Virus record (IMG/VR): IMGVR_UViG_3300028048_000040 | Span: 96,001 to 160,000 of that record | From: a virus | Lineage: Duplodnaviria; Caudoviricetes | Strand: one strand, 5' to 3' | Length of the DNA stretch: 64,000 nucleotides | Shown: piece by piece, positions 52,201 to 54,064 of the stretch | Layout: every line of letters starts with the position of its first letter | Numbering within the stretch: the first letter of the stretch is position 1 | Notes under the pieces: model-generated | Told to the model about the DNA's origin: nothing | The model's input: the letters and a program-made list of their open reading frames with translations, nothing else | Databases searched by the model: none | Position numbers and translations under genes: made by a program

Positions 52201-53772
52201 GATATAGGATCTCAAGGTGGATCTGGATATGGTAATTATGTTGTCGTAAAAGACAAGAAAGGTATGTATCATATTTATGCTCACTTAAGTCAAAATAATC
52301 TAGCTAAGAAAGGCGATTCAGTAAAAGCTGGTCAAATTATAGCAAAATCTGGTCATAGTGGACATTGTGATCCACCTGGAGATCAAGGATCACATCTACA
52401 TTATGGAATCTATAATAATCCTAATTGTGCTGCTGGTGATGGATGTATTAATCCAAATTCTTATAAAATAGATGGATTAAGTTCTTCAGGTCAAGGAAAA
52501 TATGGTAGAGGTAGATTAATCAAAATCAACCCAGTCAAAACTAAAGGTTCTGATGAAGGTGGAGTTGATACAAAGAAATATGTTCCTAAAAGTGGCAGAG
52601 GCAAATTCAAATCTACTGGATTAGAAGATCTAGATATTACTAGAGCTGCTACATATCCAGATTTCCCAAAAGAAATAAAAAGTCCAGATAATACTTTTGG
52701 TATTACTGACAATATGATTACTCAATCTAAATATGGAAGAGGTAAGTATGGTAGAGGATTTAGCTTAGATAGTATTTCTTCTGCAATATCTTCCTTTGGT
52801 AATATATTTGGTCAAGTATCTAAAATAGGAAATTCTATATCTGGTTTATTCCATCATCCTAAAGGAATCTTTGGAAATAAACAAGATCAAAAATCTAAGA
52901 GTAAGACTACTACTTCAACTACAACAACTAAAGCTCAAGCCCAGCAAGCTATATTAAGTGCTGATGATCCTGAAGTCAAGAAAATAGAAGAAGATTATAA
53001 GAAAGAAATGGAATCCTTTAATGGTATTCCTACAGCTCAACAACAGATGATGGCTCAAATGGGTCTACATCCAGCTGTTAAAAGAGAAAGAGCTCTTAAA
53101 GCTCTGATTGAGAAAAAGAAATCTAATTCTATTACTAAAGCTCAAGATGATTCTAAATTTAAATTAGGACAAGAAGGTTCCCATGGAGCAGGTCCTAATG
53201 GAAAGAAATATACTAATAATGATATAGCATATATACTCAAGAATTCTGATAAATTTGGTGGAGCTAAAACTATAGAAGATGCTATCAAGATTCTAGAAAA
53301 AGATAAAAAATATACAGAAAAAACAGAAACTACCAAAAAAGAAGATAAGACCACTCCAGATTCAGGCACTACCGCCAACTCTGGAGAGGGTGTAGAAGAG
53401 AAAAACGAAAATATTAAGAGTGGTGTTACTACTCCCACACAAAAGACTTCTCAAGAGGCTTCTAAGCCTGTTTCTGCTCAAGATAAGCTTGATATGCTAA
53501 TTGCTGCTCAAAATAAGACTAATGAATTATTATCTGCTATACTTAATATGGCAGCTAAAGCAATGGATGTCAAAGAAACTGATGTCAAAGCAGCTGAAAA
53601 GACTGCTAAAGCAAATAATAAGAAGATGAATGAAACTGCTGCTATGACTAAGTTGAATTATTTCTATAATAACTCAATGAAGAATAGCGGAGTTGATACA
53701 AGCTTCTTCAATCCTGATTCAGGAGATTTTATTGATATAACTAAACGTATGCAAAATATAGCTTCAATGTAA
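40297..53772 (+). CDS. Giant tape-measure-like virion protein with C39 peptidase-like, tail lysozyme, NlpC/P60, amidase and M23 domains
   Basis: Start MASNS after SD AAAGGAGG, ACA-N6-TA at 40239-40249; helical body with Gly-zipper hydrophobic segments; 'SQLD..ACGP..HYV', 'GNFAAES..GLAQWT..YERP', 'CDCSG..HV', 'IIIHHTA..GYHF..HK..TACPG', 'HHGIDY..YAHL..HLHY'. Confidence 0.88.
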   Translation: MASNSIVDYLKNVGQSVKFAAIESVTEKTPNLQKVFGENNKKYVQELYKDVNQHRQELNMIDRIRNATVFKQISVGWDNLKDSIKTGKFKDDSRSTGFDEMEMMFAMMGDDFLGGDSDLIEAEMNGEETGSTNDHRIRGIPEITKGDALVATASATATKNAASTISKAIVRSAELTDITARKSTNLQLRALQQQANILSSGFQQLSSSLHTINQFNNQVVITHAQNSRMFFEQATALAQERNAILREMLEMQRETFGATMKSNLSSDANDLTKMSKIFDKEKGFDLRAYMSLMQKRMKETPIGMMMMSIKMLPMMIGEVVQNPLHYIAKMGIDSIIDNSLKKAIYNIDQSISGMISTGLAKLANYGKDKATKNTLLGQIASFFGVRNENTRLSAVDTSKYNKEAIQWNGIAQKALVEVIPGHLRRIEAALTGEGERVFDLQSGKWSTMKKVANIEKDIDRKVFKETFSKEKNQLLNMMQFKNRGEMRDWIKALDSFFKGVRNRGMVDYNHIREKSSEYGDNENIVKAIAYMIHSGGLDSSQIFNLTNKINEGNAKKAAMIRDLSPANQSLVTEAVNNSYNAKWAAGTGSIYGANGKQQVDKNGRWLSMPFNDLTKLTDTRGYTLYDYQYNILQTLLNMQRSGGLGGGRPAGPVGPVGPSNGGIPIQNPQNIIAGGLVRTGNTFTNAVPSEAKDPNSAQRQHAANLVQKAQEKSISRRALYHPDKSGLDEEQKLDFSVERIKNASKEELEEMIAHMYFAGQTGKEYRANTKVASSGGIFGDLKSAARGLGVSSIDSFMADMQEATSIADKFNVVGEALRSMTSAPQKILTSVLTEADRFMYEFMFGNPVGTEKDENGKPIEGFFGKVTHEFGKTMDNLNNKFNEWFKDTFKKGAGGIAGFFKGVLEDYFNIDVDEKVEQAKRHVKKYTNKVKKGALSAGADLFGIAKEAVLGTAQDMGIYEPDEEEEQKKEQQTPPTAYRGIRKYDSKYGIGVVGPGEKIISPGRGKVLDNTTGYKVYALQYGDSVIPSYLNTSNAGRGRVTPQSLASQEYNEKSLAKSIARGNVPILGTFSGANASWKDIGGWIGELKRKEQERFEHGDGTPKLEDAKSKRGFFHNFVNWMTGYNEPEFTEDQIKMQEFIKDIVNSATKAAIEANGGAFEDEESKGRSITQAGFEMAGKLRRGNVDLNTNEFQEALKEVLAMSENIKDPDFRDTLQFILNTAGYKGEFDTVDDSKKVRRSRRNNLFVGVNQFMDNAFGIDSKKAIDTADKTIRKNLPELAKGGTFGALLSTVLPLGGPLMGALVGAGASVLTNSKSFQSYMFGTEITDKDGNVIDRKNDGIVSRKTVKAIQRYLPDAKKYGITGALAGLVLPFGPLGGLMIGAGASFLKNNSRFQEFMFGEEGGLINKDRKERIKRALPNIGVATLGTLFLGPFGIVGNAMLGAGLGILSTTESFKRIMLGSKDRNGIRRGGLADIIRRQITDPFKKSMQDIQTRLAAWFKDDLFNPVARTIKPLGRNITGEISRLLRWGAGQIFGKKDEKEKSIFGKYGLKSVDRMLGLVRNAGGLGKFITGGIGNVIGAGAHALENQVGKRLERRAFRKGYYEDGTLADERMARGAELGLDANNADQYALGGLDQLMAKLEQGPNAQKNLTSLAAALSAIQSRTEGTDDNLNRQIAAERDNIISNSEKLYSDYLKKNPTEKNPHDLYRKVESMRDKMLKMAKAENFNPEIAQGEFAKELAKSDLPREIKDQMMELFLDSGGSIAKFQSAKDNLSKRNYAEAEIAKLLGYNVDEQQYDKLDESVKKQIEAIKKHPEAISAVNNDIRTLKERASSDESAAAKLKDQVTDPGDLSIINNMEKQVDQNDVIIATLEHIANILQTNDPKKREELQAQFKDTLDKYRGTGNSDKINNAIANAKIASQRAKNQKDKDDAKVEQGKDLNKEIYDDSYFDPDKAINNPEIKAKFEKDHGKLLENWHDQYQKGLLSTEDYYRRRNELLKGTWDEYHGNTTMGAIKHDIKLVGGKVAKAANSITEKREKALDYIDEKTTDFLNEAPDKIKENIVEPTAEAFGMVSKPIIAGFQMLGKAVIGLARKISGEYETIADKANPMSNIEKDQTDKNIPPTATYGLPFFGTFAGGTAAAGAAKSGGGSLIGSVLKGALGGAKDYFTGGSSDKKEEPSNNVKEVQQSTPSAGEVKSTAGLVASFDHSKANGGAPDINAKDNVSYTSDADGNLVAIVKGPDGTPMKLKNKDNAEIEKKHQQEFEFKERSANALEAIAARLGAKVKGVGKAIADAGGGLLGGLLDSIGGLINTLFLGLPVGTWLISKLKSLPGKLFKLLGKLVPNSIKKFGADLMAKVAKLPGKLGEMVGKGFASVKSLVGKKLGQIAPSLTKNLVKLLSKSRVGALLLGGGAVATGALKMFGVIDDDDKTPSLPPGSKVIEKENGSKVVVDENGKELDIPAEEVESEEDSGMSAGSLAKTAVAGYVGREAAKKVGLKSAGGRAAGATLANIIANGGEVDAGTIADFGMSYGAEKLIDKFSGNKVPTTGLEAEGPKNRPAGQYRNAIEAKKAEIAQRKATEKSIARHQRKLAQQAAKSGANVIENNATNPSIWDKAKNAASSLKDWASSKFSTGTESAKSIFKTGMNSEVANKLKDTTSLVKDTSKQGVEAAVGKIRSAMQTVVEAAGKWLPGKTVGEAVSNFCKKIMEKVTSSQGMQILQKKLSQQAATAAGGAALGIGAVAIGTMFCVTSFISGYNHAAEQFEVQESVVTNGMKVISGLVHAIHCAIGLIPIVGLAFALIVSPKQMLDYAIDLIGPAVGLSRQDLQKLQKSGQSVVENNVKAAQEYGKGNPEINDNHSGGGFFDTVKETAAGAWDKVKSVASSAWEGVKSGASWVGDKISSAGSWIKNKLTGQGKHSTYGRGGLFGTGFHSQLDPAIAGMGFNVSGDTEKQTVKDSACGPMAMANALESVGVSVDDKDIINKTKGGKEKNGGTPDYVLNRYANNQGIATKSVGTSEKDLANSLKSGKPLVLMGQNNMGETDKDPFAENPHYVTATGLDKDGNVIIKDPESYQPVKTYKLRDIAQKTTIATELSKDREPKFSEGASLKEIMAWKLRHAGRSKWGRERSNGNAELLWNHLKSKGLSNQTISGMLGNFAAESGWRSSAVQSPSGKPIDSDTMTIDGKTGYGLAQWTDKGRQQRLRSFLQSKGLQDSDYKGQLDFVLSGQDGDVSNLFKEMDGMTPEAAAEKFCAAYERPAKDNNGVWLGLATRKQRARELFQKEGKGVTSSSSFSGGSSSSSGAAEIAQEEQEPGILGAIAQVLNKIRSITDIFGTNSSSSSGTPGSISGGSVNYQDAAKKIVECALAYEKSKIQYGQVNPPSPPKDGGQCDCSGMAQNCYRAAGIEIPRTADIQCAFFKKHNATFTGDMKQLKAGDLVFTSDSSGEVDHVFVYIGDGKAVNLGGRNGKGSNGGDARLYNGWDQIKAGIEWHKGPATFGSLEKLCAATGQTQATGTGYSGYGPKRSSTNRIIIHHTAGAKGIDPSAAEIDKMHKGNGWSGIGYHFVIRKNGTIEKGRAEDEQGAHAEGANKDSIGIHVGGNFELESPTQQQIASLVKLLQQLCKKYNIPIDRKHILGHKEVGQTACPGANLYSQLDSIVAQAAGGKGKSRFCKDKPNVPDILKEKSNKFGKGKSKYGRSIFSDISNWWNTRDQRNARRYAGQDDSLAARYGHDSENEGYVAPTVSTTDQMADQRDEEFSGQEKIRTMSSEELAEAEEAGNVIKSIAQKKSTGEDATNEEIQKAAKEGNLETGDQTVQNITEQQQKASQTNLMDKFFGGVGARLDAIGAKLAPIKDMIRSKLGSVIGDKFGKFADLIGDPLKHFGGLFGSNNSSSSSADGSHGGGGGTFNGDATAIPATGSAAAALKKALNCEITSQFGPRSSGVHHGIDYGIGTGTPVPTVTDGVIDDIGSQGGSGYGNYVVVKDKKGMYHIYAHLSQNNLAKKGDSVKAGQIIAKSGHSGHCDPPGDQGSHLHYGIYNNPNCAAGDGCINPNSYKIDGLSSSGQGKYGRGRLIKINPVKTKGSDEGGVDTKKYVPKSGRGKFKSTGLEDLDITRAATYPDFPKEIKSPDNTFGITDNMITQSKYGRGKYGRGFSLDSISSAISSFGNIFGQVSKIGNSISGLFHHPKGIFGNKQDQKSKSKTTTSTTTTKAQAQQAILSADDPEVKKIEEDYKKEMESFNGIPTAQQQMMAQMGLHPAVKRERALKALIEKKKSNSITKAQDDSKFKLGQEGSHGAGPNGKKYTNNDIAYILKNSDKFGGAKTIEDAIKILEKDKKYTEKTETTKKEDKTTPDSGTTANSGEGVEEKNENIKSGVTTPTQKTSQEASKPVSAQDKLDMLIAAQNKTNELLSAILNMAAKAMDVKETDVKAAEKTAKANNKKMNETAAMTKLNYFYNNSMKNSGVDTSFFNPDSGDFIDITKRMQNIASM

Positions 53773-53864
53773 AAAAGAAAGAGTAAGGCTTTTATAGCCT
53801 TACTCTTTTAAAATAGGAGATGATTCACAACCTGGAATAGTTTGTCTGCACTCTCAAACTACCC
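53771..53864 (-). ncRNA. Candidate ~94-nt small RNA sharing a bidirectional terminator (53778-53808) with the giant ORF
   Basis: Early motif 53863-53878; hairpin GGGTAGTTTG...CAAACTATTC; linker containing CATCTCCT. Confidence 0.55.
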
Positions 53865-53899
53865 ATTATAATAATATATCTCTATTTTTTAGTTTACTC

Positions 53900-53981
53900 A
53901 AAAAAAGATAGGCAGTTATGGCTCTACCTATCTTTTCTCTAAAGGGATAATGGATAGTAGGTCTCTAGTCTCCTATCCATC
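53900..53981 (-). ncRNA. Candidate ~82-nt small RNA
   Basis: Early motif 53980-53995; hairpin ATGGATAG...CTATCCAT; terminator AAAAGATAGGTAG...CTGCCTATCTTTTTTT. Confidence 0.6.
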
Positions 53982-54064
53982 ATAATAATAATATATAACT
54001 ATAAAAAAGTTTGCTTCAGCACAAATGTATAATGAGAAGTTTAAAAGGAGGAATATATAATACT

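Follow-up and report, generated by a model that had tools for sequence, protein, structure and literature searches.

Tandem early-promoter units without reading frames in a late-gene spacer of an uncultured jumbo phage: candidate accessory small-RNA cassettes

Layout of the spacer and its two minus-strand units

The DNA analyzed here is a 64,000-nt window (bases 96001-160000) of one 342,328-bp contig whose G+C content is 31.6% (IMG/VR record IMGVR_UViG_3300028048_000040). In this window, a 292-nt spacer separates two plus-strand late-type genes and carries two tandem, head-to-tail units on the minus strand, named U1 and U2. Window positions bear the prefix w; the phage under study is labelled G000, and its relatives are labelled G001 (a complete genome) and L001-L043 (loci or contigs). 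Each unit comprises an early-promoter motif, a hairpin at the 5' end of the predicted RNA, a single-stranded linker and an intrinsic terminator, with predicted transcription start sites (TSS) at w53981 (U1) and w53864 (U2). The same layout is found in a third unit of the window, U3.

Folds were computed from the final G of the motif and compared with 200 shuffles. The resulting z-scores were -5.6 for U1, -4.1 for U2 and -8.2 for U3, and none of the 200 shuffles folded as well. The predicted RNAs run from w53981 to about w53900 (U1, about 82 nt) and from w53864 to w53771 (U2, about 94 nt to the end of the U-run). In both units, a GC-containing hairpin stands directly before a U-run, as in intrinsic terminators, and the U2 terminator was independently picked up by a simple terminator scan. 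Motif, fold z-scores and terminators confirmed the architecture that a sequence-only reading of this DNA had proposed, while its description of loops and sizes was made more exact, with the GA-rich loops listed below and sizes fixed at about 82 and 94 nt. Its view that the units hold no credible open reading frame (ORF) was borne out as well, the spacer being free of ORFs of at least 30 codons on either strand. The features are as follows.

53996-54017, minus: upstream element of the U1 promoter, GAAGCAAAC-T6-ATAGTTA, corresponding to the element that drives U2 in L029
53981-53995, minus: U1 early-promoter core TATATTAT-N6-G, predicted TSS at the G of w53981; 33.4 bits, rank 26 of 107
53949-53981, minus: U1 5'-terminal hairpin, nt 1-33, 9+2 bp, with the GA-rich loop AGGAGACUAGAGAC (from the fold)
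53940-53948, minus: U1 single-stranded linker UAUCCCUUU, UCCC-type, anti-Shine-Dalgarno-like (from the fold)
53900-53939, minus: U1 intrinsic terminator with A-tract, 16-bp stem, 8-nt loop and U7 (from the fold)
53879-53899, minus: upstream element of the U2 promoter, GAGTAAACTAAAAAATAGAGA, which arrived with the U1 cassette
53864-53878, minus: U2 early-promoter core TATATTAT-N6-G, predicted TSS at the G of w53864; 37.6 bits, rank 5 of 107
53835-53864, minus: U2 5'-terminal hairpin, nt 1-30, 10 bp, loop GAGAGUGCAGAC (from the fold)
53809-53834, minus: U2 linker of 26 nt containing AAUCAUCUCCUAUUUU; it resembles the 3' tail of 16S rRNA and can pair with Shine-Dalgarno sequences of the AGGAGGUGAU type
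53771-53808, minus: U2 terminator, 13-bp stem and U-run UUUCUUUUUU; bidirectional, also ending the giant gene, and homologous to the single terminator of L031 and L033
56204-56325, plus: U3 with promoter, TSS at w56239, 12-bp hairpin, linker AAAAACUUCCUAAG and terminator (RNA w56239-56322), inserted in the promoter of a 65-amino-acid (aa) early gene
Ending at w53772, plus: left neighbor, a 13.5-kb virion gene for a 4513-aa multi-hydrolase with amidase and M23 peptidase domains
54018-54064, plus: invariant leader or probable late promoter AGCACAAATGTATAATGAG (54018-54040) and Shine-Dalgarno sequence of the 705-aa gene; columns invariant in eight of eight relatives
ATG at w54065, plus: right neighbor, a 705-aa virion structural gene

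Early promoters and further units of the same design

A 1490-aa protein of RNA polymerase (RNAP) beta type is encoded in the window (w29725-34194), and a second RNAP-beta-like gene lies at about 14.5 kb of the genome under the early motif. The RNAP relatives nearest in the databases, all at less than 33% identity, belong to Listeria phage LPJP1, the Bacillus phages PBS1 and Goe21, Staphylococcus jumbo phages and Yersinia phage phiR1-37. Since a multisubunit RNAP of the AR9/PBS1/phiKZ type is encoded, the genome was assigned to an uncultured jumbo phage of the multisubunit-RNAP group, and its source appears to be an AR9-like phage of rumen type.

In the window, the 15-mer TATATTATTATWATG has only three exact copies, namely at w53995-53981 (minus, U1), w53878-53864 (minus, U2) and w56225-56239 (plus, U3); with up to two mismatches, 12 matches were obtained as compared to 5.0 ± 2.1 in shuffles. 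For AR9, early promoters of the virion RNAP have been mapped by differential RNA-seq (dRNA-seq) and primer extension; they are active without protein synthesis, follow the consensus AAATATATATTAT-N6-G(+1), and transcription stops at predicted terminators (Lavysh et al. 2017, PMC5312081). The motif of the phage under study, TATAYTAT-N6-G, is the same word. Its core is exactly ATATATTAT-N6-G in U1 and U3 and GATATATTAT-N6-G in U2. The genome holds 107 copies of the motif, about 85 of them intergenic, and most stand a short leader ahead of a Shine-Dalgarno (SD) sequence and a small gene. One copy heads an operon with an RNAP-beta-like gene in first place and a helicase-like gene, as is expected for early genes. 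Promoters were ranked with a weight matrix built from all 107 copies, including an upstream element of AGTAAA and an A/T-tract, and U1, U2 and U3 (the latter ranking 21st) all fell into the top quartile. Given the match to the AR9 virion-RNAP consensus, the copy number and these scores, the early motif that had been noted before holds.

A stable hairpin beginning within 3 nt of the predicted start was observed for 17 of the 54 strong early promoters. Many of these promoters stand ahead of ordinary genes, and 5' hairpins are therefore a general device of the early transcripts of this phage. Most simply, the 5'-terminal hairpin is predicted to protect the 5' end of early transcripts. Such protection is possibly specific to this lineage or its host; among PBS1 leaders, which were read through as plain sequence, none was noted to start with a hairpin at +1. 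GA-rich pentamers are most frequent at +10 to +15 of early transcripts, since this is where early mRNAs with short leaders place their SD.

A fourth unit of the same design is located at genome position 300518, in an early, co-oriented context like that of U3. U1 and U2 are real, well-formed ORF-less units running from early promoter to terminator, and their design of hairpin, CU-rich linker and terminator is common to at least two other inserted units. They belong to a class of about ten ORF-less early units in this phage. The first 20 nt of U3 resemble the adjacent resident leader AGTATGAGTTGAAGGAGG, and the likeness of 5' arm and loop runs up to the SD of that leader; the first 12 nt or so of U2 match the start of the early-gene leader at w68302, to which the first 12 nt of U2 in L029 are identical. 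The RNA bodies are thus built partly from early-leader material.

Further early-promoter arrangements were noted in the genome. At w29300-29560 (minus; genome 125309, 125403 and 125550), three tandem early promoters diverge from the 1490-aa RNAP gene, and the first two give ORF-less units of about 107 and 73 nt; G001 retains the first unit (about 98% identity) but neither the second nor the 62-aa gene that comes after it (indel of about 480 bp). Another ORF-less early unit lies at genome position 15727 (plus), 80 kb upstream of the window. Promoter, terminator and flanks of this unit are 98-100% identical to those of its counterpart at about 83050 of G001, and the interior of about 70 nt is only about 60% identical, so that the body is either replaced or hypervariable. 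In addition, near-identical modules of promoter plus leader are present at genome positions 9156, 29888, 80204, 89633, 105332 (w9332) and 162651 (w66651) ahead of paralogous genes. They consist of TATATTATAGCNGTG, followed by ATAAAG, a hairpin and AAGGAGG-ACTTTATCATGGCAAAG; the 5' GATAAAG is complementary to a CTTTATC that abuts the start codon and may form a leader-closing helix with it.

Insertion history and conservation of the units

The spacer was compared with that of G001 (332,775 bp; 86% nucleotide identity over 77% of the genome) and of metagenomic contigs retrieved via the 705-aa protein; searches for further orthologues with N-terminal fragments of this protein and C-terminal fragments of the giant protein yielded no new close relatives. 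Relatives at 78% (G001/L001, L030, L032), 60% (L031, L033) and 46% (L039-L043) protein identity have a spacer of only 86-124 nt without U1 and U2, and each short spacer that was read (G001, L030, L031, L032 and L033) contains a single bidirectional terminator. L029 (85% identity) carries U2 and lacks U1. L028 (89% identity) carries U3, and its contig breaks off at the same junction with the U1 promoter in place. U3 is absent from G001, L027 and L029. The U2 terminator is homologous to the single terminator of the 60% relatives L031 and L033, with a compensatory change from G-C to A-T. In a first step, a promoter and an RNA body were therefore set ahead of the ancestral bidirectional terminator to yield U2. 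On the minus strand of L029 (positions 2420-2460), upstream of the U2 promoter, half of a G001-type terminator, ACCAGTAGG, remains without its partner arm, so the spacer has undergone terminator replacement besides cassette gain.

Where a relative lacks U1, U3 or the 300518 unit, an intact early promoter occupies the site. At the filled sites, the resident upstream element drives the insert, and the insert supplies the resident core with a terminator and a new upstream element. This junction pattern is the product expected of recombination between promoter repeats, e.g., by integration of a circular cassette. In a second step, a cassette of core promoter, body, terminator and new upstream element recombined into the U2 promoter, giving U1, and a like event at another early promoter gave U3. 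This comparison of relatives shows U1 and U2 to be recent, lineage-specific accessory cassettes, which one sub-lineage acquired step by step through insertion at promoter repeats. A role as replication origin or R-loop primer was rejected, since the units are missing from most relatives.

Between the two U2 orthologues, those of G000 and L029, 5 of 94 positions differ, all of them either in loops and linkers or changing G-U to A-U, and no pair is broken; the loop reads GAGAG in one orthologue and GGAAG in the other. For U3, the differences from L028 are confined to the neighborhood of the terminator base, and a double change from G-C to A-U is among them. A search for paralogues of the RNA bodies, run on this genome and on that of G001 (333 kb), matched promoter segments only. 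A scan of IMG/VR with exact words of the U1 and U3 bodies gave no matches, and five matches to a 17-mer of U2 were rejected as chance, their contexts being unrelated. Searches of Rfam, at gathering score over the whole window and at E-values up to 10 over both loci, returned only sub-threshold matches that cover terminator hairpins. No match was obtained by blastn of the region against a phage collection, and a tRNA/tmRNA scan found none.

On the right, the insertions are bounded by AGCACAAATGTATAATGAG, which is unchanged across all eight relatives, down to 60% protein identity. Its CACA-N6-TA resembles the AR9 late-promoter consensus AACA-N6-TA; a search of the genome for repeats of a 15-mer from this putative late promoter revealed no family at up to three mismatches. 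The gap between GGAGG and ATG of the 705-aa gene is 13 nt (w54047-54067, plus), which is unusually long and is kept in close relatives. No own-strand copy of the early motif was found for the virion genes flanking the units.

Candidate function and rival explanations

The linkers had been described as anti-SD-like by the sequence-only reading, and this was supported by the folds, in which the CU-rich segments UCCCU (U1), UCUCCU (U2) and CUUCCU (U3) are unpaired or weakly paired in minimum-free-energy and centroid structures alike. Anti-SD pentamers were present in the 11-29-nt linkers of all four inserted units (UCCCU in U1, UCUCC/CUCCU in U2, CUUCC in U3, CCUCC in the 300518 unit), and they are enriched 2.6-fold across the ten ORF-less early units. 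Pairing was tested against 311 predicted initiation regions of the phage with 40 shuffles per linker. The linkers paired with these regions better on average than their own shuffles, the mean energy being matched by 0 of 40 shuffles for U2, 0 of 40 for U3 and 3 of 40 for U1. The best duplexes, with -24.6 kcal/mol for U2 (reached by 1 of 40 shuffles) and -16.7 kcal/mol for U1 (0 of 40), involve generic SD regions. The U2 word ATCAYCTCCT has only seven copies in the genome; several of the others are evidently reverse complements of real ribosome-binding sites, and the U2 copy faces no gene start and can pair over 10 nt with AGGAGGUGAU.

Two further pairings were discarded. A conserved pseudoknot between GA-rich loop and CU-rich linker was rejected by inspection, as at most 3-4 bp are possible and these are not kept in L029. 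Pairing of the U1 loop with the U2 linker over 8 nt (AUAGGAGA/UCUCCUAU) was judged to be generic SD/anti-SD complementarity, because L029 retains the linker without U1.

According to the mechanism proposed here, the injected virion RNAP would start at the G of TATAYTAT-N6-G and stop at the intrinsic terminators, releasing RNAs of about 82 and 94 nt. Their 5' end would be protected by the hairpin that begins at nt +1 and their 3' end by the terminator hairpin, leaving a short CU-rich single strand in between. These linkers (UCCC, CUCCU, CUUCC) may pair with the purine-rich SD regions of host or phage mRNAs and could thereby lower translation immediately after infection, much as the Hfq-independent small RNAs (sRNAs) of Bacillota do with their C-rich seeds. 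It is very probable, given promoter and terminator predictions, that the two RNAs are made immediately after infection. That they act through the anti-SD-like linkers is conceivable, although the odds lean against it. The combined reading as accessory, mobile early sRNA cassettes with SD-pairing seeds is the best one available and is put forward with evenly divided confidence.

Several observations weigh against this sRNA reading. The units are dispensable, as most relatives lack them, and only two orthologous sequences are available for each. The GA-rich loops of U1-U3 occupy the SD position of early mRNAs (+10 to +15) and look like relics of early-leader SDs. The joint chance of the four linker pentamers, about 3e-5 in random genomic windows of equal length, is optimistic, since the motif set was chosen after the linkers had been seen. 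No specific target stands out among the 311 initiation regions, the top matches being ordinary SD regions. With 95%, U2 is more similar to L029 than the four-fold sites of the flanking genes are (71-79%), and selection relative to synonymous sites initially seemed strong; the signal collapsed once the adjacent sequence was examined, since identity to L029 is 85-97% over the final 270 nt of the giant gene and the value for U2 is not above this local background. With adjacent coding sequence equally similar, a tract shared in recent times may account for the high identity of U2. Constraint on the RNAs would fit the data, which gave no selection signal above the local background. Finally, an ORF-less unit at position 277898 (minus) of G001 is the deletion scar of a two-gene early cassette that is present in G000 (genome 216600-217650), its promoter now being fused to the 3' end and terminator of the cassette.

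According to the strongest rival, the units are functionless by-products of promoter and terminator shuffling, i.e., empty cassettes of leader hairpin and terminator left after ORF loss, or selfish mini-cassettes, which may be transcribed into RNA without a role. Early promoters and terminators exist in about 100 recombining copies, the junctions fall in promoter repeats, and presence is patchy among close relatives. The G001 277898 scar provides a worked example, conservation stays within the local background, neither paralogues nor other homologues of the bodies were found, and the 5' ends of U3 (up to the SD of the resident leader) and of U2 (w68302) are leader-like. However, a compact design with a CU-rich patch in a very short linker recurs in four independently inserted units. 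The 5' stems are perfect over 9-12 bp, the promoters score in the top quartile, and the substitutions observed spare or compensate stems. Scars should moreover retain fragments of an SD or ORF in the linker, and none was seen there. By-products are considered a somewhat unlikely explanation.

A role in cis at the late-gene boundary is improbable. The hairpins could reinforce bidirectional termination after the 13.5-kb giant gene, or the early antisense RNAs could pair with late read-through and lead to its processing. Both terminators are symmetric (A-tract, hairpin, T-tract) and replace a single ancestral bidirectional terminator, and the units are perfectly antisense to any plus-strand read-through. 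Nevertheless, one hairpin suffices in the relatives, termination needs no promoter, the RNAs overlap neither a coding region nor the SD of the virion gene, and U3 and the 300518 unit share the design in early, co-oriented contexts.

There is very little to recommend micropeptides translated without an SD. Frames exist in U1 (13 codons, AUG at +2) and in U3 (15 codons, AUG at +7), and in L028 the U3 frame shows one synonymous and two Arg-to-Lys changes. These changes are, however, equally explained as compensation in the terminator stem; both frames lack an SD, their AUGs are buried in stable 5' stems, and U2 has no AUG-initiated frame, its UUG frame changing Arg to Glu in L029. Equally far-fetched are hairpins that mimic a host RNA (a CRISPR repeat, a type III antitoxin or a CsrA-type GGA loop) and titrate a host factor as protein or defence decoys: expression would be early and strong, the GA-rich loops are exposed, and the patchy, accessory presence is typical of counter-defence genes, but loop sequences vary among units and even between the U2 orthologues, the bodies do not repeat one another directly, their neighbors include no toxin gene and Rfam gave no match.

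The early units of AR9 and PBS1 are close to those described here in their promoter consensus, which is near-identical (ATATATTAT-N6-G(+1)), their multisubunit RNAP and their transcripts ending at predicted terminators (PMC5312081), AR9 being a distant relative of the phage under study. Of the 33 motif copies in PBS1, 30 were examined; almost every one leads into an SD and a gene, mostly via a short leader, and one micro-unit at most was seen. ORF-less units are therefore not common to the wider group. In contrast, the phage under study has about ten ORF-less units, and about a third of its early transcripts start with a hairpin. The possible micro-unit of PBS1 (NC_043027.1, about 130208, minus; locus L074) shows an early promoter and a 13-codon frame directly followed by a terminator hairpin. 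RNA-seq data exist for AR9, a close relative of PBS1.

Promoter-early stem-loop (PeSL) cassettes of T4-type phages mark insertions, deletions and replacements between close relatives, with junctions in repeats (Arbiol et al. 2010, PMC2839356). Repeats of early promoter and stem-loop likewise lie at the indel boundaries of U1, U3, the 300518 unit and G001 277898, and both kinds are occasionally sited in virion-gene modules. PeSL cassettes combine a sigma-70-type promoter with an ORFan gene as cargo, whereas the units here combine a virion-RNAP promoter with an RNA body that lacks an ORF; PeSL cassettes have circular mini-cassette intermediates, while the present units are known from sequence alone. 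RsaE/RoxS and other Rsa RNAs are Hfq-independent sRNAs of Bacillota with UCCC seeds (Geissmann et al. 2009, PMC2790875). They resemble the units as short RNAs with an unpaired C- or CU-rich, SD-complementary motif between hairpins and an intrinsic terminator. They differ in that no sequence or Rfam relationship exists and in that the present units are phage-encoded, predicted to be early and equipped with one seed each.

Noncoding RNAs (ncRNAs) have been described from the transcriptomes of phage K (snc/lnc RNAs, PMC9241854) and PA5oct (PMC7318152), and one sRNA was predicted for phiKZ and not confirmed (PMC8244752). The ncRNAs of phage K and PA5oct are also intergenic and ORF-less, some with early promoters of their own, but they were found by RNA-seq, whereas U1 and U2 are predictions. 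A likeness to type III antitoxin repeats was not supported: ToxI-like RNAs are tandem, near-identical repeats of about 36 nt beside an endoribonuclease toxin, whereas U1 and U2 share only architecture and promoter, yield no repeat in blastn and are flanked by virion genes, with no toxin gene adjacent. Of the sequence-only reading, the early promoter, the lack of credible ORFs and the CU-rich linkers were supported; it had missed the insertion history, the commonness of 5' hairpins and the position of the loop at that of the SD.

To our knowledge, very few sRNAs of strictly lytic phages have been assigned a function, and for the immediate-early phase of jumbo phages, in which the virion polymerase acts, there is no established case. 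The present account is the first of the insertion history and of the design of hairpin, seed and terminator that the units share. With about 82-94 nt and a single exposed seed each, the units are clean, minimal candidates, and genomes with and without them exist in nature. A bolder version of the sRNA reading, which is rather unlikely, holds that they belong to a pool of mobile, promoter-bounded sRNA cassettes that hop into early promoters by promoter homology, would be transcribed by the virion RNAP in the first minutes and would use anti-SD seeds resembling the 16S tail as a sponge or blocker for SD-led mRNAs of the host or of rival phages. If this were true, it would amount to an RNA-only host-takeover module exchanged among co-infecting phages. 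Whatever the function, the insertion pattern shows that PeSL-style modular shuffling also works on virion-RNAP promoters in AR9-like jumbo phages, and that cassette shuffling can build tandem promoter arrays and put early promoters inside late virion-gene clusters.

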